From the IMG/VR virus record IMGVR_UViG_3300028603_000003: a stretch of 64,000 nucleotides of DNA; one strand, given 5' to 3'. The stretch's first letter is position 1. Each line of letters begins with the position of its first letter. Made by a program: the position numbers and the translations under genes. Positions 1,300 through 18,056 of the stretch are shown one piece after another. The stretch is from a virus (taxonomy: Duplodnaviria > Heunggongvirae > Uroviricota > Caudoviricetes). The notes beneath the pieces are model-generated. The model made no database searches, was not told the origin of the DNA, and was given only the letters and a program-made list of their open reading frames with translations.

Positions 1300-1743
1300 A
1301 TGGCTAAGCCTGTTAGTTGTGGAGTGTTGATTATCAACGAGGAAGGAGAAATTCTCGTTGGCCTTTCAACCGGAAACAACAAATACGACATTCCGAAAGG
1401 TCAACTAGAAGAAGGTGAGCGACACATAGATGCTGCGATCAGAGAGTGTAAGGAAGAAACTGGCCTCACATTCGGGGAGAATGATTTGACTTTCTTGGGT
1501 TATTTCAATTATTCTAGGTACAAAGACCTAGTTCTCTATATGGCTACGATCCGGTCCACTTCAATTCAAGTAGAAGAGTTGGTTTGCGAGTCAACATTTA
1601 AAACCAAAGACGGAAAAGAATATCCTGAACTAAGCTCTTTCAAGTGGATGCCTCCCGAAGAATACCAAACGCACATGTTCGCAAGCATGCAAAAAGTTTT
1701 ACAAACAGTGTTCGAAGAAAGTATCTGGAGAGTATATGGCTGA
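1300..1743 (+). CDS. Nudix hydrolase
   Basis: Nudix box GQLEEGERHIDAAIRECKEETGL. RBS ggaga upstream of ATG 1300. Confidence 0.85.
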   Translation: MAKPVSCGVLIINEEGEILVGLSTGNNKYDIPKGQLEEGERHIDAAIRECKEETGLTFGENDLTFLGYFNYSRYKDLVLYMATIRSTSIQVEELVCESTFKTKDGKEYPELSSFKWMPPEEYQTHMFASMQKVLQTVFEESIWRVYG

Positions 1744-4529: not shown

Positions 4530-5441
4530 ATGATTGGAATTGACTTTTCATCCTTCGCCATAAACACGATCACCGGAAACCTAGAAGAGAAAGACTTGGA
4601 CGGCAATGCCGACTCTCTGCCACTAATTCGTCGCGTAATCCTCACTAGCCTATTGTCGATAAAGGCAAAGTATAAAGCAAAGTTCGGCAACGAGATTGTG
4701 TTTGCAGTTGACAATAAGACTAAACCATATTGGAGAAAGTCTGTCAACCCCTATTACAAAGGAACCCGAAAAGAATCTAGAGAAAAGTCAAAGTACGACT
4801 GGTCTTACATCTTTGATTGTATGTCAACAGTTAAGGCTGAGCTTATCGAAAACTTCCCATACAAGGTTATTGAAGTAGAAGGCGCAGAAGCCGACGATGT
4901 GATCGCGGTGTTGCTGCGGTATGTCCAAGAGAATAGAAAGGTCAGAGAAGGGCTTATAGAGTCTCCAGAGCCATTTCTGATTGTGTCAGCAGATGGGGAC
5001 TACGTTCAACTACACAAGTTTGAGGGAGTTGAACAATATTCTCCTAAAAAGGGTTCGCTGATTACCGTGAAGTCCGTTAAGGAAGTCAACGAGAGTCTTC
5101 TAACAAAGATCATCAAGGGGGATGCAGGCGACGGTATTTGCAACATTCTTTCCGCACCTAACTGCTTGGTTGACAAAATTAGGCAAAAGGCTGTATCTAC
5201 TGAAAAGTTCCTAAACCCACTTCTGGAAAATTCTGACCACTCTTGGCTGACAGAAGAACAACAAGAGCGGATGCGCATAAATAGAATACTGATTGACTTT
5301 GACTACATCCCACAGGACATCCGAGATGGAATCGTAGAGGCTTACAACAGCTACGTGGTCAAGGGATCAAAAACAAAAGTTTTCGACTATCTAATTAAAA
5401 ATAGATTGAAAGTTTTATTCACTCGTGTAGACGAGTTTTAA
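4530..5441 (+). CDS. rnh: RNase H / 5'-3' exonuclease (FEN family)
   Basis: Resembles T4 RNase H: conserved acidic clusters (VFAVDNK, GAEADDVIA, VSADGDYVQL) and an H3TH-like region (IKGDAGDGI). Confidence 0.8.
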   Translation: MIGIDFSSFAINTITGNLEEKDLDGNADSLPLIRRVILTSLLSIKAKYKAKFGNEIVFAVDNKTKPYWRKSVNPYYKGTRKESREKSKYDWSYIFDCMSTVKAELIENFPYKVIEVEGAEADDVIAVLLRYVQENRKVREGLIESPEPFLIVSADGDYVQLHKFEGVEQYSPKKGSLITVKSVKEVNESLLTKIIKGDAGDGICNILSAPNCLVDKIRQKAVSTEKFLNPLLENSDHSWLTEEQQERMRINRILIDFDYIPQDIRDGIVEAYNSYVVKGSKTKVFDYLIKNRLKVLFTRVDEF

Positions 5442-5456
5442 CCATGAGGAAATACA

Positions 5457-6047
5457 ATGCGTAAATTAGTCTCAGAACTTCTAGAAGAAGTTGGAAAGTC
5501 AGAGGATAAAGTTGCAGCGATTAAGGCAGCAGCAACACAAAACCCTGCAATCGTCGATGTCATTAAAGTTGCCTTCGATCCTGACTGGGAGTTCAATCTA
5601 TCTCCGAGCTACCCTGACAAGTTTAAATTAGATAGGACAACTCCAGCGGGATTGTCCATCACCGAACTCATCAAGGATCGTAAGAAGCTTCAAATTTTTC
5701 GAAAATTTGGTCCGTATGCAACACTAGACCAATCTCGACGGGAAACAATTTTCTTGACTTTCTTGGAAAGTCTTCACTACTCGGAAGCTGAAGTTCTAGT
5801 GTTTGCGAAGGATCGTGCTCTCGAAGAGCTTTACCCTTGGCTCAACCGAGACTTCTACAATGTTCTTTTTGGTATTACTGAACCTAAGAAGGTCGAGGTG
5901 GTAGAGAAAAAGGAAGAACCCAAAAGTGAATCTCAAGAAGTTTCTGAAAAGCCTACTGAAAAAGTTGAAGAGGTGAAAAGTGAAAATAGCGAACCTGTTG
6001 AAAAGCCTAAGCGGCGCGGAAGACCCAAAAAGTCTGATAGCAAGTAA
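5457..6047 (+). CDS. hypothetical protein with K/E-rich tail ending in an AT-hook-like RGRPKK
   Basis: ORF. C-terminal low-complexity basic/acidic tail. Its central domain is paralogous to the next ORF. Confidence 0.5.
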   Translation: MRKLVSELLEEVGKSEDKVAAIKAAATQNPAIVDVIKVAFDPDWEFNLSPSYPDKFKLDRTTPAGLSITELIKDRKKLQIFRKFGPYATLDQSRRETIFLTFLESLHYSEAEVLVFAKDRALEELYPWLNRDFYNVLFGITEPKKVEVVEKKEEPKSESQEVSEKPTEKVEEVKSENSEPVEKPKRRGRPKKSDSK

Positions 6048-6357
6048 CAAGGTTCTGCAAACTCTTATCGAATACAACTTCGCAAAAGAAAAACCATTTG
6101 ACCTACCCGAAGGCTATCCTGAAGGTAGGTCTTTGTTTTTGAACGAAACGAATCTTATGCAAGAAGCCAGAAGGCTCTACATCTTCACGAAGTCGGGGCA
6201 CCCGACTTTGAAGAAAGTTCGCAGAGAGCAATTGTTCGTAGAGATGTGCGAAGGCTTTTCGAAAGAAGAAGCAGAAATCTTGATTGCAGTCAAAGACCAA
6301 AAGTTGCATGAATTGTATCCGATTTTAGAACAATTGTATTCTAAAGAAGAACAATAA
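5980..6357 (+). CDS. hypothetical protein, paralog of the preceding ORF's domain
   Basis: Alignment: EAEVLVFAKDRALEELYPWL vs EAEILIAVKDQKLHELYPIL. Overlaps the upstream ORF by about 68 nt in another frame. Confidence 0.4.
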   Translation: MKIANLLKSLSGAEDPKSLIASNKVLQTLIEYNFAKEKPFDLPEGYPEGRSLFLNETNLMQEARRLYIFTKSGHPTLKKVRREQLFVEMCEGFSKEEAEILIAVKDQKLHELYPILEQLYSKEEQ

Positions 6358-6392
6358 ATAGTAAATCTGTATATAACTGTTTTGGAATTGAC

Positions 6393-8264
6393 ATGACATT
6401 TAAGAAATTTTTTAAAGAATCCGTAGAAGACTTGCAAGAGGTTTCCCAGTCTCCAGCAAGTCTTGAAGCATTTTTGAACTCTCCTGAAGCAGAGGGCATG
6501 AGATTTGGCTTCGAGGCTGAAGTAATCATGACTGGGTTCGACGATGATAATGACTATGATGAGTCAGAGATTGTAGACGAAGATATTGGTAGGACAGAAT
6601 CTTTAAATGATGTTACGACTTTCTTTGACATCAGGCCCAGTGCCAGAAGTTACATGACCTTAGAAAGTGACTTCTACGAATGGCTTGGCGAAAAAGAATC
6701 TGAGTATACAGAAAACTATATCAGTGATAATCTAACAGACCGAGCAGAAGAATTGTTTAGCAAATTGTCTGCTGAAGAGCAAGAAGAATCTGATGTAGAA
6801 GACTTTCTCGACGACGCTAGAAGTGAATTAGAATCCGAAGCAGAAGAAGATTTTTCCTACAATGATGATTACGGATTTTATGAATTTTGTCAAGCAATGG
6901 GATATAGAACTTATTATGACTTGTCAAACGCATACGGGTTTGATTGGCCCGACGATAGATACGAAAGTTCTTCTTCGGAATATGACGAAGACACTGGATA
7001 TTCTCTAGACAGAGCGGAAGAAGTCGCCTCTGAATTAGAAGATGCATTAGACATTAGTGTAAAGGCATATAACAGTTACCATGGCGGACAACTCGGCGCA
7101 CACTCAGAGTTGTGGAGAATTGAGCCTGATGGCTCTCTGGAGACAAAAGACCCCGAGTCAGAAGCTGGAATGGAGATCATAACTCCAGACGGAGGTTTGC
7201 CGCTCAAAGAAGGCATCACTGCGATGCAACAACTATTTTCTTGGCTCAGAGCTAAGCGAGCCTACACCTCAGAAGACGCGACAACAGGACTTCACATCAA
7301 TCTTTCAATTCCTGACCAATACAAGAAGACGATTGACTATGTAAAGCTAGTGCTTTTCTCTGGTGACGAGTATGTTCTTCAACAGTTTGATAGAGTCGGT
7401 GGATACAACGACGAGTCTGCACGAGAAATCAGAAGGGCGATTGAAAGAGGAAACGTAGAAGAGGCTCTCGGGCTTATGCGGAAAGGGCTTTCCACTGCGG
7501 CTTCTACTTCTCTGATTGCAAGCAACAAAGAAAGATCGGTAACTGTAAACAAGAAAAATAACTATGTTGAATTCAGAGTGGTAGGAAACGACTATTTGAA
7601 TATGGGAGAAGTTGTCAGACTCGCAGTTCTTAGATTCGCCAGAGCGTTGACAATTGCCGCTGACCCAGAAGCATACAAAGAAGAATACGCCAAGAAACTT
7701 TACAAGGTTATAACAAATGTTTCTGGTGAGATGTTGGAAGGTCTTAATCCAGACGTGGTAAAGATGTTTGCACAAACCTTGAGTCAACTTTCTTATGGCC
7801 CACCAACGAGAGAAACCGCGCAAGGCATTGCGAACCTAAAGGCCAGACTTCTACAAACTAGAATGACTCGTAAGTCTGATACCCCAAAGTTGCCTGACCG
7901 AAAAAATGAAAGAGGCAGCACCGAAAGTCAATTCAAGGCGGAAGCTTTGTTAAACGCAAAGGCGTTGGAACTGTTCTTGAATTACAGAAAACAAACTTAT
8001 GGGGAAGATAACTCCAAGCTAAATGCATATTTGTTTTCGCTGAAGAGAGCAGACTTTAGACAAATAGCCGCAGCCTTCTCTGTTTTTTGGGAAGACGTTG
8101 ACGATTTCGGAAAGAATGTTTTGGCAGTTTTCAGCCCGATTCCGGTAATAGAAAAAGAAAAGCCGGAACTTATTGGCAGGACAGCAGGATCACCATTTTT
8201 CATTGAACTTAAACCAGAGAAAAAGAAGATTTTCCTTGCCAATGTTATCCAGAATTACTCTTAA
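6393..8264 (+). CDS. large acidic protein with putative amidoligase-like (GS/GCS-type carboxylate-amine ligase) C-terminal domain; paralog 1
   Basis: N-terminal GFEAEV motif, a long D/E-rich insert, and TGLHINLS. The C-terminal roughly 250 aa is clearly paralogous to ORF 15501..16820 (IAADPEAYKEEYAKKLYK in both). Family call from memory of the amidoligase GxExE/TGxH pattern, unverified. Confidence 0.4.
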   Translation: MTFKKFFKESVEDLQEVSQSPASLEAFLNSPEAEGMRFGFEAEVIMTGFDDDNDYDESEIVDEDIGRTESLNDVTTFFDIRPSARSYMTLESDFYEWLGEKESEYTENYISDNLTDRAEELFSKLSAEEQEESDVEDFLDDARSELESEAEEDFSYNDDYGFYEFCQAMGYRTYYDLSNAYGFDWPDDRYESSSSEYDEDTGYSLDRAEEVASELEDALDISVKAYNSYHGGQLGAHSELWRIEPDGSLETKDPESEAGMEIITPDGGLPLKEGITAMQQLFSWLRAKRAYTSEDATTGLHINLSIPDQYKKTIDYVKLVLFSGDEYVLQQFDRVGGYNDESAREIRRAIERGNVEEALGLMRKGLSTAASTSLIASNKERSVTVNKKNNYVEFRVVGNDYLNMGEVVRLAVLRFARALTIAADPEAYKEEYAKKLYKVITNVSGEMLEGLNPDVVKMFAQTLSQLSYGPPTRETAQGIANLKARLLQTRMTRKSDTPKLPDRKNERGSTESQFKAEALLNAKALELFLNYRKQTYGEDNSKLNAYLFSLKRADFRQIAAAFSVFWEDVDDFGKNVLAVFSPIPVIEKEKPELIGRTAGSPFFIELKPEKKKIFLANVIQNYS

Positions 8265-8273
8265 GGAATTGTT

Positions 8274-9416
8274 ATGAGTTTCAAAAATTTTGTTTTAACT
8301 GAAGCCAAGAAAGAGAAGTTCGGGCATATCGAACACCTTGAGGACTTCATCATCGAAGAGGGTTTGGAAGGGTTTACACTTCTGAAGAAAGCCTTGGATG
8401 GGGTCATTGACTTTTGTAACGGGAAGCCGACAGATGTTGTGGTGAGTCAGAAGATTGATGGCTCACCTAACATCACATTTGGAGTTAACGCAGAAGGTAA
8501 ATTTTGGGTGGGAACCAAATCTCTATTCAACAAGAAGACCCCAAAGATTAACTATACTCCAGAAGACATAAACCGAAATCACGAATCTCCGGGGCTGAAT
8601 AAAAAACTTAACGTTGCTCTCAGATACCTACCAATGATTCGTGCTAAAGGAATTGTTTCCGCTGATATACTATTCACCGAAGACGACATCAAACAGCAGA
8701 CGATAGACAACAAGAAGATGTTGACCTTCAAAGCAAACACTCTTGTATATGCCGCTGAAGTTGGAACTGACATCGCAAGAAAGATTTCTGTTGCTAAGAT
8801 TGGAATCGCGGTGCACACAAAGTTTGAAGGTGATCATCCTCAAAACTTTAAAGCACAATACAACCCTGCAATTTCATTCACCCCACATCAAGCAGTGTTT
8901 GTTGTAAATCCCTATGATGTGACCGTCGCCCCATTCAATCAACAAGAAATGCAAGAGTTGGAAAGATTGGGTAGCATGCAAGTTGACCCAAAAATCTTTG
9001 ACATCATAAGAGAAACAAAGAATGCCCAGATGTTCAAAAAGTATACCAATCAGTTAGTAAGAAACGGACAGATAGAAACTGATCCAAAGTCTTTCTATAC
9101 TGGATTGAAACAGTTCTTCGAAGTAAACGATAACAGAATCTTCAGACACTTTGACGACGAATTGCTGAGTCTTTGTGAAGCATACCTTAACATCATCAAG
9201 ATAAAGAAGATGATTCTGAATCACCTAAGAGACACCGAAGCATTGCGGGCTTTTGTCAAGGATGGCGACTCTTTGGTTCCAGTTAGCGGAGAAGGATTTG
9301 TCGTAGTAGTTGACAATCTACCCATAAAACTAATTGACAGATCGGTCTTTAGCAAAGCAAACTTTACACAAGAAAAGCCTTGGGATCAGCAACCACAACA
9401 AGGAATACCACAGTGA
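8274..9416 (+). CDS. putative nucleotidyltransferase-superfamily polynucleotide ligase-like protein
   Basis: Lysine-adenylation-like motif VVSQKIDGSPNITFG (KxDG). No reliable further alignment to T4 Rnl1/Rnl2 or DNA ligase. Confidence 0.35.
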   Translation: MSFKNFVLTEAKKEKFGHIEHLEDFIIEEGLEGFTLLKKALDGVIDFCNGKPTDVVVSQKIDGSPNITFGVNAEGKFWVGTKSLFNKKTPKINYTPEDINRNHESPGLNKKLNVALRYLPMIRAKGIVSADILFTEDDIKQQTIDNKKMLTFKANTLVYAAEVGTDIARKISVAKIGIAVHTKFEGDHPQNFKAQYNPAISFTPHQAVFVVNPYDVTVAPFNQQEMQELERLGSMQVDPKIFDIIRETKNAQMFKKYTNQLVRNGQIETDPKSFYTGLKQFFEVNDNRIFRHFDDELLSLCEAYLNIIKIKKMILNHLRDTEALRAFVKDGDSLVPVSGEGFVVVVDNLPIKLIDRSVFSKANFTQEKPWDQQPQQGIPQ

Positions 9417-10408
9417 TCACACAAAAACTAAAACAAGACATTGTAGCGATTCTAGAAAACAAATTTGAAGAAGACGTTAGCGTTAGAAAGGTCGCAGTAG
9501 AAAAGTCTGACCAACTGATGAAGAAATTCGATACTCCCGAAGGAACCTATTGGTTTTATCAGAAAAGGAATCTTAGGTCTAACGACAAAGACAAGATTTA
9601 CTACTTGTTGGATAATCGTGGAAATTCTATTAAGACTTGGAAGAACTCCGATCTAGACTCTATAAAGAACGATTTGAAGAAGCTTCTTCGTTTGTCTGAA
9701 GAGGTCTTGGACGAAGACTTTCGCAGTATGGCTATCGGTGCAGCCGGTCTTGGTCTTGGGGCAATCGGTGCCTATCAAATGATGGACAAAGAACCTCCGA
9801 AAGAACCGACACCGCAAGTAAGGCAGGTTCAGCAAGGGGATATCAAGAAGCCGGAACTCAAAGCCCCTGTAGCCAAGAAAAATGTGCTATCTGGAGCAAT
9901 TGATTCTCTGTCTGAGATGGAGAAATACTTCGTAAAGAAAGCAATTCAAAACGGGATCGAAGGCGTCGAGCTAGTGGCGTTCTTGGCACAAGTCGCCCAC
10001 GAGACAGGAAATTTTTCTTCTATGGTTGAACAAGGTCCGAAGAAATACTTTAGAAGATACGAACCAAAATGGAATCCTCAAACCGCCAAGATTCTCGGCA
10101 ACGTCAAACCCGGAGATGGTGAAAGATTTAAAGGAAGATCATTTGTTCAACTAACGGGTAGAGATAACTACCGAAGAGCGGGACAAGCACTTGGACTTCC
10201 ACTAGAACAAAAGCCACATCTATTAGAGAATCCTTCAGTTGGATTCAAGGCTTCTTTGTGGTATTGGAACACTAGAGTTAAATCTAAGACAAACAACTTC
10301 GAAGATATTGAACAAGTCACCAAACTAATCAACGGTGGGTTGAACGGGTTGGAAGATAGAAAGCGAAAATTCGAAAAGTACCTGTCACTACTAGAACCTT
10401 CTAAGTAG
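9380..10408 (+). CDS. glycoside hydrolase family 19 endolysin (chitinase-like lysozyme)
   Basis: GH19 catalytic signatures FLAQVAHETGNF and GRSFVQLTGRDNYRRAGQALGL...KASLWYW. N-terminal hydrophobic stretch MAIGAAGLGLGAIGAY. The true start may be internal. Confidence 0.75.
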   Translation: MGSATTTRNTTVITQKLKQDIVAILENKFEEDVSVRKVAVEKSDQLMKKFDTPEGTYWFYQKRNLRSNDKDKIYYLLDNRGNSIKTWKNSDLDSIKNDLKKLLRLSEEVLDEDFRSMAIGAAGLGLGAIGAYQMMDKEPPKEPTPQVRQVQQGDIKKPELKAPVAKKNVLSGAIDSLSEMEKYFVKKAIQNGIEGVELVAFLAQVAHETGNFSSMVEQGPKKYFRRYEPKWNPQTAKILGNVKPGDGERFKGRSFVQLTGRDNYRRAGQALGLPLEQKPHLLENPSVGFKASLWYWNTRVKSKTNNFEDIEQVTKLINGGLNGLEDRKRKFEKYLSLLEPSK

Positions 10409-10445
10409 TTGTTAATGTTAACAACAAATTTATCGATAGACAAAA

Positions 10446-12860
10446 ATGAAGAATTTCAAATCCCTGCTTTCAGAACTAAGCAATAATGCACCAAAAGAAG
10501 CTGTGTTCACCTTTGGAAGATTCCAAGGTCTGACTATCGGCCACGAAAAGCTTTTGGACTCTCTATTCGCACAACCGGGCGATCACTTTGTTTTTATATC
10601 CCAGACAAAGGATGATCAGAAAAACCCACTGACGGCAGAGGATAAGAAGAAGTTTCTTGTTGCTGCATACCCAGAAAACAAAAAGTCTTTCTCCATCGAG
10701 TATAGGACTCCCTTTGACGCGCTACAGTCTTTGATTGAAAGGGGCTACACTAAAATCAAGATGATCGTCGGCGAAGATCGAGTAGAGACTTTTAAATCAT
10801 CTTTCGACGGATTCGATTTTCCTGTCGAAGTTAAATCCGCTGGCGATAGATCAGAAGACGGAAGCAAAGTTGAACAGGCAAACGGACAGGCGATTCGCGA
10901 TCTGGCGCGTGCTGGAGCACTAAAGGATTTCAATAACCTTGCAATGTCAAAGCTAGACTCTGACAAGAAGCTAGCGATGTTCAACGAAATCAGAAAGGCT
11001 TACGGAAAAGATTCTGTAAAGATTTCAAAGGCAGAGCAGGTAAGAGAGGATTACGTTGCCGGAAAGATTTTTAATCTTGGGGATTATGTCTCAGAGGGAA
11101 CAGAACAATTCAAGATCATAGATAGAGGGTCTAACTATGTGAGGGTTGTAAACCGTGAAGGTAGGGTTTCTAGAAAGTGGCTAACAGACATCGAACCTCA
11201 CCGGCCAGCAGAGAAAACCTTCGCAGAATCGTTTAAACCCGCTTCGAAGGACTCAGTCTTCACCGTTAATGGCTACACACCAAAGTTCCACTCAAAGGCT
11301 CCTGTGCGGGCTTTTGAGAAGTCTATGGACGTGCAAGACCAGTATGCATTGTTGGAAGCGGTAAAGGAAACCGAAAAGCTGTTCAATTCCCTATCGCTCA
11401 AAGAAATGTATTCTGCATTCCAAAGATCAGGAGAGTTTTTGGAGAAGCTTGGTGTGGTTGAACTACATGAATATCGGAAGAGTTTTGAAACTGATATTGC
11501 CAAAAAACTGATCGAAAACGTTTCTTCAATTGGCGAAGTCTTCGATCACGACAAAGAAAAAATTGTGCAGTTCTTCGCAGACTTGGTTGGTGTAAATAAA
11601 AACCTAACTTTGGAATCAACAATCCAAAGATGCGTCAACAAAATTAATAACTGCGTTCTAAGCGAAGCAGAAAAATCTGTGTTTGTGCAGATCATTGACC
11701 TATTGATTTCGGAAGGCTTTGAGTTTGATTTCTACAGCCTAAAGTTTATTCGAGAGTGCTCAGTAGAAGAGGGAACCGACAGAGACTTGTTGTTGTTTGC
11801 GGATCAACTCATCGAGGGCATGACATTCGAAGACATTGTCCCCCTGTACGAAGAGAAAGACTTTGTAATCATTACCGAAGCATTTGGTAGGAAGACTGTA
11901 AAGGTTGAACAGCCACTAGACGACAGAAAGATTCAGCGCAAGGCTAAACAGATCGCAGTTCAATACATGAAGCAAAGGAAGTCTAGAAAAGCCGTTGACC
12001 AGTTGACGACTGCTGAGAAAAAGAAGATTGAAGAAATCGTCGGACAGAAGGGATCAATCCTGACAATGATTTCTAAGAAGCTTGGAAAGAAGATTAGAAA
12101 GATCGAAGCCGAAAGACTTCTGCCACCAGAACCTGTCACGCCACAAGAGCTAGTAAAGGAAGAAGCTGGTGAAGAGTACGTCGGTATCCACTATGGCAAG
12201 ACTCCGGGTGTAGGCTCTCTGTCTGGAAGTATGTGGGGCACAGGGGCCAAGGGCGCAGAGAAGGAAAGAGTTATGAACTCTTCTGACAAACGGCTGCGCA
12301 AAAGGGTCTACTTCTATCTTCAACAAACTCCCAACACACTACCAAAGCCAGAGGCAGAGGTAAGTGGAGTTCACGTATATAGAGCAAAGCTGAATAACAT
12401 CTATGATGCTACAAACGATCCAGAAGGAATTTTGAAAAGACGCAAACCCGGAACAGATTTGGAGACTGCAATTCTAGACGCGGGATACGACGGCTATCTA
12501 AACAGAGAGTTCATGGGTGGCGCGATTGTTGTTTTGAATAAGGACAAAGTAGATGTTGATTACCTCGGAACAAGAAGTGAAGCGCAGGAGAAGGTTGGAC
12601 CTATTACAGCACCTAACCAAGAAATCAGAAACTCAGGAATCAAAAAGTCAAACACTCCAGCAATCATCGACTTCAGACAAACAAGAGATGGATTCGAATC
12701 TGGATTGCTCAAAGGCGACGAATCACTATTCTTGATTAAGAACAAGAAAGAGATGGCTGAAAGATTCCCTTCATATGACATGAGAATGGGTAGAGCATTC
12801 TTCTCAAACGAGACTGAAAAGGATGAGTTTGTAGAATGGTACAGAAAAATAAATGGCTAG
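10446..12860 (+). CDS. 804-aa protein with N-terminal HIGH-motif nucleotidyltransferase (NMN/cytidylyl-transferase-like) domain and an uncharacterised 600-aa extension
   Basis: FTFGRFQGLTIGHEKLL matches the G-x-F-x-x-x-H-x-G-H signature of NMNAT/CTP-transferase-fold enzymes. No motif recognised in the remainder. Confidence 0.5.
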   Translation: MKNFKSLLSELSNNAPKEAVFTFGRFQGLTIGHEKLLDSLFAQPGDHFVFISQTKDDQKNPLTAEDKKKFLVAAYPENKKSFSIEYRTPFDALQSLIERGYTKIKMIVGEDRVETFKSSFDGFDFPVEVKSAGDRSEDGSKVEQANGQAIRDLARAGALKDFNNLAMSKLDSDKKLAMFNEIRKAYGKDSVKISKAEQVREDYVAGKIFNLGDYVSEGTEQFKIIDRGSNYVRVVNREGRVSRKWLTDIEPHRPAEKTFAESFKPASKDSVFTVNGYTPKFHSKAPVRAFEKSMDVQDQYALLEAVKETEKLFNSLSLKEMYSAFQRSGEFLEKLGVVELHEYRKSFETDIAKKLIENVSSIGEVFDHDKEKIVQFFADLVGVNKNLTLESTIQRCVNKINNCVLSEAEKSVFVQIIDLLISEGFEFDFYSLKFIRECSVEEGTDRDLLLFADQLIEGMTFEDIVPLYEEKDFVIITEAFGRKTVKVEQPLDDRKIQRKAKQIAVQYMKQRKSRKAVDQLTTAEKKKIEEIVGQKGSILTMISKKLGKKIRKIEAERLLPPEPVTPQELVKEEAGEEYVGIHYGKTPGVGSLSGSMWGTGAKGAEKERVMNSSDKRLRKRVYFYLQQTPNTLPKPEAEVSGVHVYRAKLNNIYDATNDPEGILKRRKPGTDLETAILDAGYDGYLNREFMGGAIVVLNKDKVDVDYLGTRSEAQEKVGPITAPNQEIRNSGIKKSNTPAIIDFRQTRDGFESGLLKGDESLFLIKNKKEMAERFPSYDMRMGRAFFSNETEKDEFVEWYRKING

Positions 12861-13698
12861 AAAGTTAATCGAAAAAACATGCGCAGAGTGTGGGAGCCTG
12901 TACTCTACTAGATTAAAAACGGAGTGCTGCTCAAAATCTTGTGCTAATAGAAAGTCTGCGAGAGATAGGAAACTTACAATCGATCCTGACAGTGGCTTAA
13001 CTCTGACAGAGCTTTATCATAAAAGATCAGTAGAATCTTTGCGAGAGACATATTATGGGAGCGAATCTCACAAGAATGCTGCAAGACAAAATATTTTAAA
13101 AATGGACAGAGCAGAGGCAACAGCCAAGGCGACAGAAACTAAATCCAAGGTGGATGAAGACGGGTTAACCTTGGCACAAAAGTCCACCCAAAAAGCTATA
13201 AAAACTAAAATAGCTAATGGCATGATAGTATGCGCAGAACAAGTAGAACCATTCTATAAATACACAAGAGAAGTAAGGGTCATGACAGAGAGAAACCTAA
13301 AGAGTTGGTCTGTGGATAGACTCGAACAGCGAGGCAGGCACACGTATCATGCAGACCACATCTATAGCATCTTTGATGGCTACCACAACAATGTGCCACC
13401 AGAAGTAATAGCCAATATTAAAAACATTAGGTTAATACCTGCTAAAGAAAATTTGCAAAAACAATCAAGAAGTGACATTAGTTTGATGGAGTTGTACAAG
13501 TTAGTTAACCAAAACTTTAACGAAACTGAAAATTTGGCTGAAGAACGGAAAGTTATTAAAGCTGCGCCTCACAGCCTTAATGGGAAGTCTTCGTGTAATG
13601 TGTGTGGTAAAATAACCAACCACGGAAACATAAAGAGATGGCACAATGAAAATTGCAGATTCTGGTCTTCACCAAAAGTTTCAGACTTAACAAAATAA
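12853..13698 (+). CDS. HNH endonuclease-like protein (free-standing homing endonuclease candidate)
   Basis: N-terminal Cys cluster CAECG...CCSKSC and HNH-like HADHIYSI...N...IRLIPAKEN. Confidence 0.5.
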   Translation: MARKLIEKTCAECGSLYSTRLKTECCSKSCANRKSARDRKLTIDPDSGLTLTELYHKRSVESLRETYYGSESHKNAARQNILKMDRAEATAKATETKSKVDEDGLTLAQKSTQKAIKTKIANGMIVCAEQVEPFYKYTREVRVMTERNLKSWSVDRLEQRGRHTYHADHIYSIFDGYHNNVPPEVIANIKNIRLIPAKENLQKQSRSDISLMELYKLVNQNFNETENLAEERKVIKAAPHSLNGKSSCNVCGKITNHGNIKRWHNENCRFWSSPKVSDLTK

Positions 13699-13713
13699 CA
13701 AGGATATCAAAAT

Positions 13714-15417
13714 ATGCTTATTCAGATTCTAGAAGAAGCAATGTCACACGAAGACATTCAAACTTGGGCAGAACTCCAATCATACGCTGGTTATGATGTG
13801 GAACTGACCATTAACGAAGATGTGGCTACTGTGGTCTTGGAGAGCAAGGGGGAGAAACAAAAAGTCCTTGCCAAGATCGAGAAGCCTCTCGAAGACGGGA
13901 AGACCCCTGAAGAGAAGAAAAAGAAAATCAAAGCAACTACTGTTGCTGACGAGGAAGGGTTAAAGGACATCGAAGTTAACGTTATCGGTTCACACTACAT
14001 TTACAACCACGGCAAGAAGCCAGCAGGTAATGGTAAGTGGGCTTTCGGTGTTGGCTCTCGCGAACCAAAAGACCTTTTGTTCTTTGATGGTGCCTATTCA
14101 CAAGTTTCCAAGCAAGCAGTCGAAGCTGCAAAGAAGAAAGCCAAAAAAGAAGGTAAGACTGCGGTTAAACTCTATGTCATGGAATCCAACGTTCCTTCCA
14201 TGGAAGTCGATTACAATATCTCAAAGACAGGCAAGCTAGTCGAGTGCAAGCTAAGTGTTGACGGAAAGTCTTCTGTAATTTCTGGGTTGAGCGAATCTGC
14301 TGTGGAAAAGAAGGCTCTAGAGTTAATCGAGAAAGTCGAAATTGAATTCTTGGAAGAGCGCAGTCTAACAAAGAAAGAAACAAAGAAAAAGGAAAAAGTC
14401 GTGAAGGGAATCAAGAAATCAGCAAAAGACATGAAGGCCCGTTACGGAAAAGATTGGAAGTCTGTAGCATATGGCGCAGCAACAAACATTGCCAAGAAGA
14501 GCAAACTAAAAGAGTCCTGTGACACAGAAAAAGAAGAACTTGAAGAAGCAAAAGAAAGAATCTTCAAGCTTTACTTCTTCGACAAAGACGAGCCACAAGA
14601 TGTCAGATCAGTCGAGGTTAGAGCAGAAAACCGCAAGGACGCGATGGACTATGTCTATTACAAGTTTGGTCCAGTCAGAATCCAGAGAGTTCAAGTTCTA
14701 GATGAAGCTGAAAATCCAGATGGTGTATTGATTGCTGAGCAAGTACAAACATTCGAAATTGAGTACGAAATGCAAAGCAACGACGGCACATCTAAGGGAA
14801 CCACAAAGTACAAAGCTCTGAGTGCTGGTGAGGCCCGGACAAGATTCCTAAAAGATAATCAAGGCAAGAGAGTTACTATTCGTAACGTTAGGCCCGCAAA
14901 GCCGGGTTTGAATGAGGCCGCAGGAGTTGCTATGGACGTTCATGACGTTGCAAAGCTTATTATGAGAGAAGCTTTGAAGTTTGCAAATGAAAGACTGTCA
15001 CAGAAACAAGACGACGAGTTTGATCGGGATACTGAACTAGAAGACGGCGTCAACGACTACCTTGACTTGGTTATGCATCATCTAGAAGACAACCGAGTAG
15101 AGTTGACCAGCCCAGAAGCAATCAAGTCTTACCTTGGCGAAGACTATGAATCTGGACAGTACGGGTCAAGTAAAGATGAAGTAATCGATAACCTAATTTC
15201 GAAATACCTAGATGGTGAAGAATCAGAAGAACTTCGCATTGCACTGTCAGACGCTTTCGAAGCTGGAGCAGAACTTGGAACAGGCTCGGAGCAAGAGTCC
15301 GAATGGGAATCTGAAGACATCGAAGAACTTGAAGATGAACCTAAAGAGAAGAAGGTTTCAGAGTCAACAGTCTCTATCTACGCCAAGCTAATTTCTCAAA
15401 ACAAAGCTAACATGTAA
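13714..15417 (+). CDS. hypothetical K/E-rich 567-aa protein with acidic C-terminus
   Basis: ORF with low-complexity charged regions. No motif recognised. Confidence 0.5.
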   Translation: MLIQILEEAMSHEDIQTWAELQSYAGYDVELTINEDVATVVLESKGEKQKVLAKIEKPLEDGKTPEEKKKKIKATTVADEEGLKDIEVNVIGSHYIYNHGKKPAGNGKWAFGVGSREPKDLLFFDGAYSQVSKQAVEAAKKKAKKEGKTAVKLYVMESNVPSMEVDYNISKTGKLVECKLSVDGKSSVISGLSESAVEKKALELIEKVEIEFLEERSLTKKETKKKEKVVKGIKKSAKDMKARYGKDWKSVAYGAATNIAKKSKLKESCDTEKEELEEAKERIFKLYFFDKDEPQDVRSVEVRAENRKDAMDYVYYKFGPVRIQRVQVLDEAENPDGVLIAEQVQTFEIEYEMQSNDGTSKGTTKYKALSAGEARTRFLKDNQGKRVTIRNVRPAKPGLNEAAGVAMDVHDVAKLIMREALKFANERLSQKQDDEFDRDTELEDGVNDYLDLVMHHLEDNRVELTSPEAIKSYLGEDYESGQYGSSKDEVIDNLISKYLDGEESEELRIALSDAFEAGAELGTGSEQESEWESEDIEELEDEPKEKKVSESTVSIYAKLISQNKANM

Positions 15418-15435
15418 TGTTTGCTGGCATGACGA

Positions 15436-15464
15436 AAATGGGGCCACTGGCCCCATTTTGTTTG
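15436..15464 (+). terminator. rho-independent terminator
   Basis: aaaatggggccactggccccatttt hairpin followed by a T-run. Confidence 0.55.
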
Positions 15465-15469
15465 AGAAG

Positions 15470-15477
15470 TATAAATA
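15470..15477 (+). promoter_or_regulatory. T4-type late promoter box TATAAATA
   Basis: Exact TATAAATA about 24 nt upstream of ATG 15501. Confidence 0.4.
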
Positions 15478-15500
15478 TTAGTAAAAGGAAGGGTATCTAA

Positions 15501-16820
15501 ATGCGCGTGGTAAATGAAGTAAAAATGTCTCCGTCCGTTTTCTCTAAAGGTCTAGTTACCGCTGGAGACAAGGGAGTTCTTATCGGATTTGAGTTTGAGG
15601 TTGGAGTTCCTTTGGATAACCAAGATGAACTCAACATTACCTCTTCTCGATGGACATATCTAAAAAGTATCCAAGAATTTCTGTCGTGGATCAAGGCTTC
15701 CGCAGACAGCGTAAGCGAGGACGTTGAGTTCGAAATCTCCGACGATTACACAAAGTGGGCCAAACAAAAGACAAAAGACTTTTTGGAGTCTCTTAGTGAA
15801 GATGGTTTGGACAAGCTAACATCTTTGTACGATGAAGTCTATGACAAACACTCATTGGTCAATATGACAAAGTTCGTAACATTGGGTGCGTCTACTGAAC
15901 TTCAAGCTAGACTGGCTGACTTTCTTGAGCTTAGTGAGTATGAAGAAACTGACGACTACCTTCTATTCATGGATCACATTGACGAAGTTACTAGATCGAA
16001 GCTAAACTCATTTGTTTCCGATTCCTATGGAAACATTGCTGGACTGTTTAAGAAATTTGGATTGAAATATTCGCCACAAGAAAAAGACGTTGACGATAGG
16101 TATCACTTGATTAAGAATTCTGTTAGGGATGTGACTCAAGCCGAGATTGCCAAGACACAAGTTCACGTCATTGACATCGCAAAGACAATTACAAAGAACC
16201 TCACAGACTGGTATATCGAACCAGACACAACGATTAGGCCGGACGACAAATTCAATTATACTGGAGCAGAAGTTGTCAGTCCTCCGCTTAAACCAAATGA
16301 AGCCATGGCAGCACTTGATTCATTCTATGCAGCATCCAAAAAACATGGATGGGTAACAAACAAATCAACCGGACTACACATCAACGTTTCTATTCCAGCC
16401 AAGATTGATGTTTTAAAGCTAACACTATTTTTGGGTGACAAGTATGTGTTGAAGTCATTTGGTAGAGAAGGTTCTGCGATGGCTCGCTCTGTTCTAGATG
16501 ATCTAGAGAAGGGAGCAGCGTTAGATAGCATTGTTGGTCTGACACCGGATAATATCAAGCGTCTTTCTCTGTCGGCAAAATACTTCGCAGATAACCACTA
16601 CGCATCTATTAGCTACGAAACAAACGTAGACACATTGAAAAAGAACAAGTATATCTCTTTCAGGCATGCTGGAGGGGACTACTTAAACGAGATGCAGAAG
16701 ATTAGAGATACGATTGGTAGGTTCGTTACAGCCATGATTATCGCTGCCGATCCAAATGCTTACAAAGAAGAGTACATGAAGAAACTTTATAAACTCGCAT
16801 CACCAAAGTCCGCTGAATAA
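15501..16820 (+). CDS. putative amidoligase-like protein, paralog 2
   Basis: GFEFEV, TGLHINVS and IAADPNAYKEEYMKKLYK motifs shared with ORF 6393..8264. Confidence 0.4.
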   Translation: MRVVNEVKMSPSVFSKGLVTAGDKGVLIGFEFEVGVPLDNQDELNITSSRWTYLKSIQEFLSWIKASADSVSEDVEFEISDDYTKWAKQKTKDFLESLSEDGLDKLTSLYDEVYDKHSLVNMTKFVTLGASTELQARLADFLELSEYEETDDYLLFMDHIDEVTRSKLNSFVSDSYGNIAGLFKKFGLKYSPQEKDVDDRYHLIKNSVRDVTQAEIAKTQVHVIDIAKTITKNLTDWYIEPDTTIRPDDKFNYTGAEVVSPPLKPNEAMAALDSFYAASKKHGWVTNKSTGLHINVSIPAKIDVLKLTLFLGDKYVLKSFGREGSAMARSVLDDLEKGAALDSIVGLTPDNIKRLSLSAKYFADNHYASISYETNVDTLKKNKYISFRHAGGDYLNEMQKIRDTIGRFVTAMIIAADPNAYKEEYMKKLYKLASPKSAE

Positions 16821-16866
16821 TTTTACCTAAATAGGTATAAACAAACCTTTTATAACAGGATACAAA

Positions 16867-17547
16867 ATGGATCGTCAAACACAAACCAGAGTATACGACG
16901 CGATTGCTCAGGTTCTGACCAATCAAGGCAGAATCAAAGAAGCAGTAGAAAGCGTGGTGTCAGAGAGAACTGACAAGTCAGGTCGTGACCTCTCTCAAGT
17001 AGAGTCAATGGAACGCTGGCTAAAGCCACTTAAAGAGCTTCTAGAAAGTTCGGTGTCGCCTAACGCTAAGCAACAGTTCATTCGTGAATACACAATGTGG
17101 GTTCGCTCTTTCGGACAGTTCTACTCAGCAGCAATCAAATCAAACCCCGGACTCGCAGAAGTATTCGGCACACTTGAAGATGCATTCAACATCCAAGTGA
17201 AAATCCAAAATGGAAAGACCACGAAGAACGCAAAGGATGTCAGAAAAGAATCTGTGATCAAGGAAGCAGAAGGCGACTCAGACGAGTTTGTTGACACTTT
17301 CATTGACATGATTCAAAAGATTCCTAGCTCTTCATTGAAGTCTCGTTTTGCATATCAGTTCGAGCGTTGGAAAAGAGAAAACCCAACTGAGGTTGCTCAA
17401 CTCGAAAGAAACTCACCCACTATTAATTCTTTCCTAGATAAAATTCTAACTACCATTAACCCAGATATCGACCAAGATGTTGCGGACACTGAAGTTCCTG
17501 CTGACGAAGTCGATGCAAATTCAGAAGTGCAAAACAAAGGAGTATAA
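16867..17547 (+). CDS. hypothetical protein
   Basis: ORF only. Confidence 0.45.
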   Translation: MDRQTQTRVYDAIAQVLTNQGRIKEAVESVVSERTDKSGRDLSQVESMERWLKPLKELLESSVSPNAKQQFIREYTMWVRSFGQFYSAAIKSNPGLAEVFGTLEDAFNIQVKIQNGKTTKNAKDVRKESVIKEAEGDSDEFVDTFIDMIQKIPSSSLKSRFAYQFERWKRENPTEVAQLERNSPTINSFLDKILTTINPDIDQDVADTEVPADEVDANSEVQNKGV

Positions 17548-17552
17548 CAAAA

Positions 17553-18056
17553 ATGTCAGCATGGACAAGAACCACACCCCCAACATGGTTTAGCACCGCA
17601 GTTGTCGGAAAAATGGGATGGGAAAATCCCACTACCGGAGAACTTTTGGTAGCAATCTCAAACCTACAAGCAAAGAACGCAGACGAAGTTGATCCAGTAA
17701 CAATCGTTGCAGTTACAGCAAATAACGAGCCTCTAGTTACTGGCGATTCACTGGTTGTAGTTGTACAGTTCAGCGAAGCAGTTGCCGTAATTGGAAGCCC
17801 AGAAATCGCTTTGACTGTTGGTGCAGAATCTCGGGTACTACAATTTGACTCTGCCAATTCTACGGCAACCCATGTCGCATTTAGCTACACTGTAGTTGAA
17901 GATGACGTAGCTGCGGCAGGGACAATTTCTGTGGACACTTCGATTGATCTCACAAACGGTGGAGTGTATGACATTCTTCCGGGCGGAGCACTAAGCCCAG
18001 TTGCGGCACCAATCACTTTCGTCGCACCCACAACGGCCCTAGTTTCTTTTAACTAA
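17553..18056 (+). CDS. hypothetical T/S/V-rich beta-type protein
   Basis: ORF with composition typical of Ig-like/structural accessory domains. Confidence 0.4.
   Translation: MSAWTRTTPPTWFSTAVVGKMGWENPTTGELLVAISNLQAKNADEVDPVTIVAVTANNEPLVTGDSLVVVVQFSEAVAVIGSPEIALTVGAESRVLQFDSANSTATHVAFSYTVVEDDVAAAGTISVDTSIDLTNGGVYDILPGGALSPVAAPITFVAPTTALVSFN

Follow-up and report, generated by a model that had tools for sequence, protein, structure and literature searches.

What kind of protein is encoded by a phage gene in which a HIGH-type nucleotidyltransferase (NTase) domain is followed by some 600 further residues, and where would such a protein act? The 64,000-nt stretch of viral DNA analyzed here (the window) carries this gene at 10446..12860, and its 804-aa translation begins MKNFKSLLSELSNNAPKEAVFTFGRFQGLTIGHEKLL. 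The ORF is a real gene rather than a chance ORF, because it is conserved over its full length in three metagenomic relatives (P0001, P0002, and P0003, with 95%, 80%, and 69% identity). An earlier sequence-only reading had reported both the ORF and its (H/T)xGH motif, and both were confirmed. It had treated the remainder as a 600-aa unknown region; Pfam and PHROG indeed return nothing above threshold beyond residue ~290, but the region resolves into an SH3-like barrel, acidic helices, basic helices, a domain that we call domain X, and a terminal subdomain. The AF2 model of the whole protein has a mean pLDDT of 74. The gene and its parts are as follows.

10446..12860, + strand: gene for the NTase/ART-like multi-domain protein (ATG start, 804 aa plus stop; ORF listing)
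10446..10475, + strand: CTS-like propeptide leader MKNFKSLLSE (by likeness to the T4 CTS, F4 and L7 for targeting, L8 and E10 for processing)
10494..11015, + strand: HIGH-superfamily Rossmann-like NTase domain, aa 17-190 (PHROG, AF2, Foldseek)
10533..10544, + strand: T-I-G-H, the (H/T)xGH signature, aa 30-33 (homologue alignment)
10878..10898, + strand: degenerate second motif A-N-G-Q-A-I-R, aa 145-151 (M-S-A-S-K-M-R in the family, ISxSxxR type)
11028..11195, + strand: SH3-like beta-barrel, aa 195-250 (AF2, five strands, pLDDT 81-87)
11283..11915, + strand: acidic all-helical domain, aa 280-490, pI 4.75 (AF2 helices, pLDDT ~80-94)
11916..12125, + strand: very basic helical segment, aa 491-560, 21 K+R, pI 10.45
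12177..12611, + strand: domain X, ART-like, aa 578-722 (145 aa), absent from Pfam
12612..12857, + strand: C-terminal linker and small alpha/beta subdomain, aa 723-804, found in a subset of domain-X proteins

The best explanation overall, to which we give about an even chance, is that the product of this gene is packaged in the head of a T4-like myovirus and injected into the host as a multi-domain effector. In this explanation the source genome is an uncultured marine T4-like myovirus. None of 50,697 phage records gave a megablast match to the NTase gene, and hence there is no close cultured relative. At the protein level, residues 1 to ~290 match 483 phage records, mostly T4-like cyanophages, and PHROG 3041/395 "cytidyltransferase" at E-values of 6e-42 and 2e-35. 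Judged by these similarities, this part is a member of the "cytitidyltransferase"/NMNAT-like family of T4-like cyano- and pelagiphages; a literature search under "cytitidyltransferase" or "DUF5824" returned nothing. The cyanophage proteins of this family (T4-GC 190 or PHROG 3041/395, including PSSM7_191, S-CREM2 gp154, and S-SCSM1 ORF91) share a homologous leader, the HIGH NTase, and the SH3-like barrel with our protein (E 4e-12 to 6e-42), and their genes, like ours, lie between replication genes and gp61/nrdA, beside a DUF6267 gene. However, they are only ~290-390 aa long and span only residues 1 to ~310 at 25-34% identity, whereas the 804-aa protein continues with a helical domain, the basic segment, and domain X; the function assigned to the family is itself a prediction.

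The NTase domain was modeled by AF2 with a pLDDT of ~90 (aa 20-130). Its top Foldseek matches are NadM (2qjo, E 3e-4), NadD, PPAT, and archaeal NMNAT, all with a probability of 1.0, 12-16% identity, and a target-normalized TM of 0.5-0.7. These are adenylyltransferases, in keeping with the HIGH-fold nucleotidyltransferase that had been claimed, and the domain does not group with glycerol-3-phosphate cytidylyltransferases, the first cytidylyltransferase appearing only at rank 50. An alignment of 73 homologues keeps G24, R25, and H33 in every sequence and T30 and G32 in at least 90% of them. The Pfam model CTP_transf_like (PF01467) scores 16.9 bits, under its gathering cutoff of 21, which is passed by the homologues P0019, P0042, P0052, and P0077 (22-27 bits).

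The NCBIfam NMNAT model (PRK01153) scores 13.7 bits versus a cutoff of 127, PPAT models score alike, and the top NCBIfam match is FAD synthetase (17.3 bits versus a cutoff of 241); all NCBIfam adenylyltransferase models fall far under their cutoffs. Searched against PDB sequences, a profile of the N-terminal domain gave matches without significance (E 0.13-1.6), split between PPAT and NMNAT, and a whole-family profile gave a low-complexity match only; the substrate is therefore not assignable by sequence alone. In the second motif, Asn replaces the Ser at 146 that at least 90% of the family retain, Gln replaces S148, and R151 is kept. The specific identification as an NMNAT, which the sequence-only reading had proposed, is thus not upheld by these scores or by the two replaced Ser residues, which are near-invariant in the family. 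On the structural model we regard the domain as a putative adenylyltransferase-type HIGH NTase, for which NMN + ATP -> NAD+ is the leading guess.

An unpackaged, cytoplasmic NMNAT of the NadV/NatV or NARP2 type, rebuilding NAD+ against an NAD+-depleting defence, would account for several of these features if the N-terminal helix belonged to the fold and the C-terminus were regulatory. NadM/NatV (NMNAT-Nudix), NadR, NadD, and archaeal NMNAT share the Rossmann-like HIGH fold and a GRF(Q/N)P..(H/T)xGH likeness, and NadM, NadD, and NMNAT are among the best fold matches; the GRFQ/NPxTxGH stretch resembles the archaeal NMNAT sequence GRFQPFHKGH. Distant homologues carry the NTase fused to P-loop kinases (Zeta_toxin/AAA_33, Pnk-like), as in NadR, or to a Pol-beta NTase. 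The gene lies among genes of nucleotide metabolism (ThyA-like, RNR, ligase), and phages are known to make NAD+ as a counter-defence (PMC9503650). Salvage of this kind had been proposed as an NMNAT-Nudix pair, drawing on a second gene in the window.

1288/1300..1743: Nudix ORF (PF00293, E 4.5e-16; Nudix box intact by eye)

The stand-alone Nudix gene is real, but the pair is not borne out. The Nudix gene is unfused and lies 8.7 kb upstream of the NTase gene, with gp32, RNaseH, and six other genes between them, and it is of the ubiquitous T4 NudE type, matching 1269 phage records at ~40% identity, mostly from enterobacterial phages and several annotated nudE. We rejected it as a partner of the NTase on its distance and its T4 NudE-type affinity. 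Neither Nampt/NadV nor PRPP synthetase was found among the larger window ORFs scanned. Compared with the NadM/NatV group, in which KVP40 NatV occurs with NadV, our protein shows 12-16% identity, a degenerate second motif, PPAT matches of equal strength, no fused or adjacent Nudix domain, and no NadV among the ORFs scanned; no NMNAT family cutoff is reached. Taken with the evidence from the leader and the C-terminus below, we consider a cytoplasmic NMNAT quite unlikely.

The first ten residues, MKNFKSLLSE, point instead to the phage head. The T4 capsid-targeting sequence (CTS) is MKTYQEFIAE, with determinants of targeting at positions 4 and 7 and of processing at positions 8 and 10; the leader fits this pattern, having aromatic or hydrophobic residues at both targeting positions and (L/I)-x-E over positions 8-10, and the 11 closest homologues all have M1, K2, and E10. 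A leader regex, defined post hoc, matches 5/128 + strand ORFs as against ~0.1 expected from shuffles, and 0/48 on the - strand; three of the five fall in the block 6393-12860. The capsid-targeting-like N-terminus that had been claimed is present and recurs on window genes well above shuffles. Orthologous neighbor genes bear the leader in L003, L001, and P-SSM7, where PSSM7_194 starts MKTYSQFIEE, and stand-alone, otherwise unrelated domain-X proteins start MKNFKDFLKE, MRTFKEYLNE, or MKKFSEFLVE. S-CREM2 gp154, a homologue of our protein (E 4e-12), starts MKNFSSFLTE and was found by mass spectrometry as a "cytidylyltransferase (virion protein)" (PMC10665884). NMNAT-like proteins are also reported in the virion proteomes of S-SCSM1, S-CBWM1, and S-SZBM1 (PMC9602691, PMC10665884); the authors of the proteomics warn of carry-over of abundant proteins (PMC10665884). 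A homologue in a virion proteome and a portable leader that is also found on unrelated proteins both argue against the cytoplasmic NMNAT.

Two observations temper the case for packaging. Some distant homologues have the leader-like motif inside the protein (in P0033, 82 aa away from the called start), and many homologues begin right at the first strand (MKKIVFTFGR), so the motif could be partly a structural N-terminal helix. Moreover, the gene sits in a replication and nucleotide-metabolism region, away from the head genes. The closest parallels in T4 are IPI-III and Alt, which are packaged in the head and ejected, with diverse cargo behind a conserved ten-residue leader whose determinant positions are those of MKTYQEFIAE; Alt is a packaged ADP-ribosyltransferase (PMC5512222). 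The T4 internal proteins, however, are small and basic, whereas ours is a predicted two-enzyme protein of 804 aa with no homology to them beyond the leader, and its packaging and cleavage are predicted.

The middle of the protein contains elements that might contact DNA. The SH3-like barrel matches phrog_4808, has Foldseek matches to the two-domain RSV integrase and to SIV integrase, and is kept in the cyanophage homologues. The acidic helical domain has no family match and is common to P0005-P0016. The basic segment is the best-conserved part of the middle region in 11 homologues, with A500, A504, R511, E524, E529, K545, L546, K552, E554, and R557 invariant.

Domain X links the protein to a different class of phage proteins. 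It has 845 relatives, mostly within polyvalent or internal-virion proteins of 2000-4000 aa. Among 153 aligned relatives, 123 occur in proteins of at least 1000 aa, of which 74 also bear ART-PolyVal (in 32 cases no more than 150 aa downstream); LPD22 is present in one domain-X protein. In Limnohabitans phage DC33, domain X lies in a 3125-aa protein at a gp16-like position, flanked by internal-virion-protein and lysin genes and a tail-fibre gene. In L003, an ART-PolyVal gene lies immediately 3' of the orthologous NTase gene. A C-terminal domain typical of ejected proteins is a further point against an unpackaged NMNAT. The injected effector suggested by the sequence-only reading gains support from the CTS match, the shared leader, the S-CREM2 virion homologue, and the occurrence of domain X as internal-virion or polyvalent cargo; the 804-aa protein is probably an ejected multi-domain effector, all of whose activities are predicted from sequence features.

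The invariant H, R, Y, and E residues of domain X are all present in the 804-aa protein. For comparison with the catalytic configuration of the ART superfamily, H (strand 1), Y (strand 2), and D/E (strand 5), H582 in strand 1 is found in 150/151 sequences, E673 is invariant, and Y622 and Y624 lie in a later strand, although the putative catalytic Asp682 (GYDG) is conserved in only 108/154 sequences. Aligning trimmed profiles of domain X and ART-PolyVal by hhalign placed His on His and GYDG on GYDG with a probability of only 40% (P 3e-4); comparison with the L003 ART-PolyVal protein by BLASTP, or by hhalign before trimming, gave no significant match, and a jackhmmer ART-PolyVal HMM matched neither domain X nor the window. 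Pfam, including ART-PolyVal (PF18760), gave nothing at E <= 1 for domain X, and nothing in the domain-X region of eight homologues. A domain X profile had no match among PDB sequences, and tblastn found no match in plasmids and only two in phage records. Foldseek gave nothing significant, MbcT coming at E 0.15; compared with the MbcT/RES toxins (NAD+ phosphorylase, NADase, Prs ADP-ribosylation), domain X has 8-13% identity, no evident R-E-S, and no antitoxin context. It also differs from Alt, a member of the R-S-E clade, in its invariant His in strand 1. We describe domain X as a candidate ADP-ribosyltransferase-like domain, possibly a new clade of the ART superfamily. The sequence-only reading had not noted an ART-like C-terminal domain.

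The polyvalent proteins of Iyer et al. 2017 (PMC5512222) combine several effector domains in a single polypeptide for which injection is predicted, much as the 804-aa protein would. Our searches place domain X inside such proteins, with LPD22 and often just upstream of ART-PolyVal (Tox-ART-HYD2). In the sections of that paper on which we draw, a HIGH-superfamily NTase does not appear among the polyvalent-protein domains, and targeting relies on MuF, portal, or gp16-like fusion rather than on a T4-type leader, as it would in our protein.

The neighborhood of the gene offers another reading of the NTase, through a DUF6267 gene that adjoins or nearly adjoins the NTase gene in 8/9 loci (the window, L001-L003, P-SSM7, and L007-L009), a pairing that was absent from the sequence-only reading.

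8274..9416, + strand: DUF6267 gene (PF19782, E 4e-77; leader MSFKNFVLTE; ligase/capping-type motifs)

DUF6267 has the invariants K-x-D-G, EG[FY]V, and K[LI][VI]DR in six homologues, and on these motifs, read by eye, it may be ligase-like. A NAD-unrelated NTase could then form with DUF6267, as a ligase-type covalent nucleotidyltransferase, a module for nucleic-acid end-processing or adenylylation, or could serve PPAT- or FAD-synthetase-like cofactor synthesis, domain X being unrelated cargo. RNA or DNA repair against host nucleases would be examples of end-processing, with the fused Pnk-like kinases of distant homologues adding a step. The recurrence of the pair in very divergent phages, the retained ligase-like motifs (K-x-D-G, EG[FY]V, K-x-x-D-R), the homologues with Zeta_toxin/AAA_33 kinases or a Pol-beta NTase, a PPAT profile score equal to that of NMNAT, the TxGH and KKNPL motifs common to the NTase and PPAT, and the top NCBIfam rank of FAD synthetase are all consistent with it. 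Yet these matches all fall short of significance, neither a phosphatase nor a healing domain was found, and DUF6267, whose ligase nature depends on motifs read by eye, had no match among PDB sequences. That both the orthologous gene and domain X are repeatedly associated with ART-PolyVal points rather to NAD+ chemistry, and we judge this NAD-unrelated reading unlikely.

The NTase and DUF6267 genes belong to a tightly packed block (6393..15417), whose first leader-bearing gene starts at 6393, preceded by a possible promoter element.

6353..6360, + strand: AATAAATA, a T4-late-promoter-like box, 39 nt before the leader-bearing gene at 6393

The + strand has only seven copies of ATAAATA, two of which sit 30-39 nt before the ORF starts at 6393 and 15501; the box is a weak candidate for an expression signal of the block. 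The exact TATAAATA is not enriched in the window, and a sigma-70 promoter and terminator scan of 5000-18000 gave matches at chance level.

At its 3' end the NTase gene has been truncated by an endonuclease gene that the sequence-only reading missed.

12853..13698, + strand: HNH-type homing-endonuclease ORF, 281 aa (PHROG 5104; "HADHIYSI...N...N" read by eye)

The DNA specific to the window spans 12849..13652; in a blastn comparison with L001, these 804 nt stand in for 282 nt (~94 aa) of the 95%-identical gene, and the HNH ORF extends, in frame, into the ancestral gene's final 48 nt. An intron or intein was rejected, because the frame upstream ends at the junction and the 282 nt of the relative are missing, not interrupted. 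The replacement may have damaged the NTase gene. If so, the protein could be a decaying or catalytically dead remnant, at most a structural or DNA-binding internal protein, which lost its C-terminal domain to the HNH gene and its motif serines in the NTase; the substitutions S146N and S148Q and the Pfam score under cutoff would fit this. However, P0002 and P0003 naturally lack the extension and stop at this very point, so the replaced segment is dispensable. The 804-aa reading frame is unbroken, all of the clade P0001-P0004 has the motif changes while otherwise showing clear purifying selection, (H/T)xGH, R25, D111, S131, G133, and R151 are all retained in comparison with the 73 homologues, and every invariant residue of domain X is present. 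We regard a dead remnant as very unlikely.

We therefore return to the head-packaged effector and outline how it might work. Judging from its sequence and from the virion proteomics of a homologue, MKNFKSLLSE would act as a CTS-like signal that brings the protein inside the scaffolding core of the prohead; the prohead protease would then cut the leader after Glu10. The SH3-like barrel and basic segment may hold the protein on the packaged DNA, with which it would exit the head. Once in the host, the N-terminal adenylyltransferase-type HIGH NTase would act, NMN + ATP -> NAD+ being the reaction we would guess first, and domain X would either spend NAD+ in modifying a host target or process NAD+/ADP-ribose. 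The fusion could link the supply of NAD+ on the spot with its use in early infection. The block of leader-bearing enzyme genes (amidoligase-like and the ligase-like DUF6267) would be a possible counterpart of the T4 internal-protein genes, and an HNH homing endonuclease has replaced the final ~94 codons seen in the 95%-identical relative.

Papers on cyanophages have repeatedly reported "NMNAT-like/cytidylyltransferase" proteins in virions, how and why being unexplained. The leader common to the NTase family and its neighbors provides a concrete packaging mechanism that can be tested. Because the protein is fused to a domain that is otherwise found only in ejected polyvalent proteins, these abundant phages of the ocean may be injecting enzymes for making and using NAD+ or related nucleotides. 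Domain X itself, which has over 800 relatives but no model in Pfam, is a candidate new clade of the ART superfamily, and the strictly conserved DUF6267-NTase pair represents an uncharacterized two-enzyme module in some of the sea's most abundant phages. A bolder reading, which we hold only tentatively and think improbable, is that marine T4-like phages carry a self-sufficient injected ADP-ribosylation cassette together with an unrecognized arsenal of CTS-tagged enzymes, the NMNAT-like domain making NAD+ on site for the ART-like domain or, in relatives, for the downstream ART-PolyVal protein. Were this true, host targets would be modified in the first seconds of infection, even where abortive-infection systems destroy NAD+, and the arsenal (HIGH NTase, DUF6267, amidoligases, and ART-like proteins) would be the separate-gene functional equivalent of the giant polyvalent proteins found in other phages.

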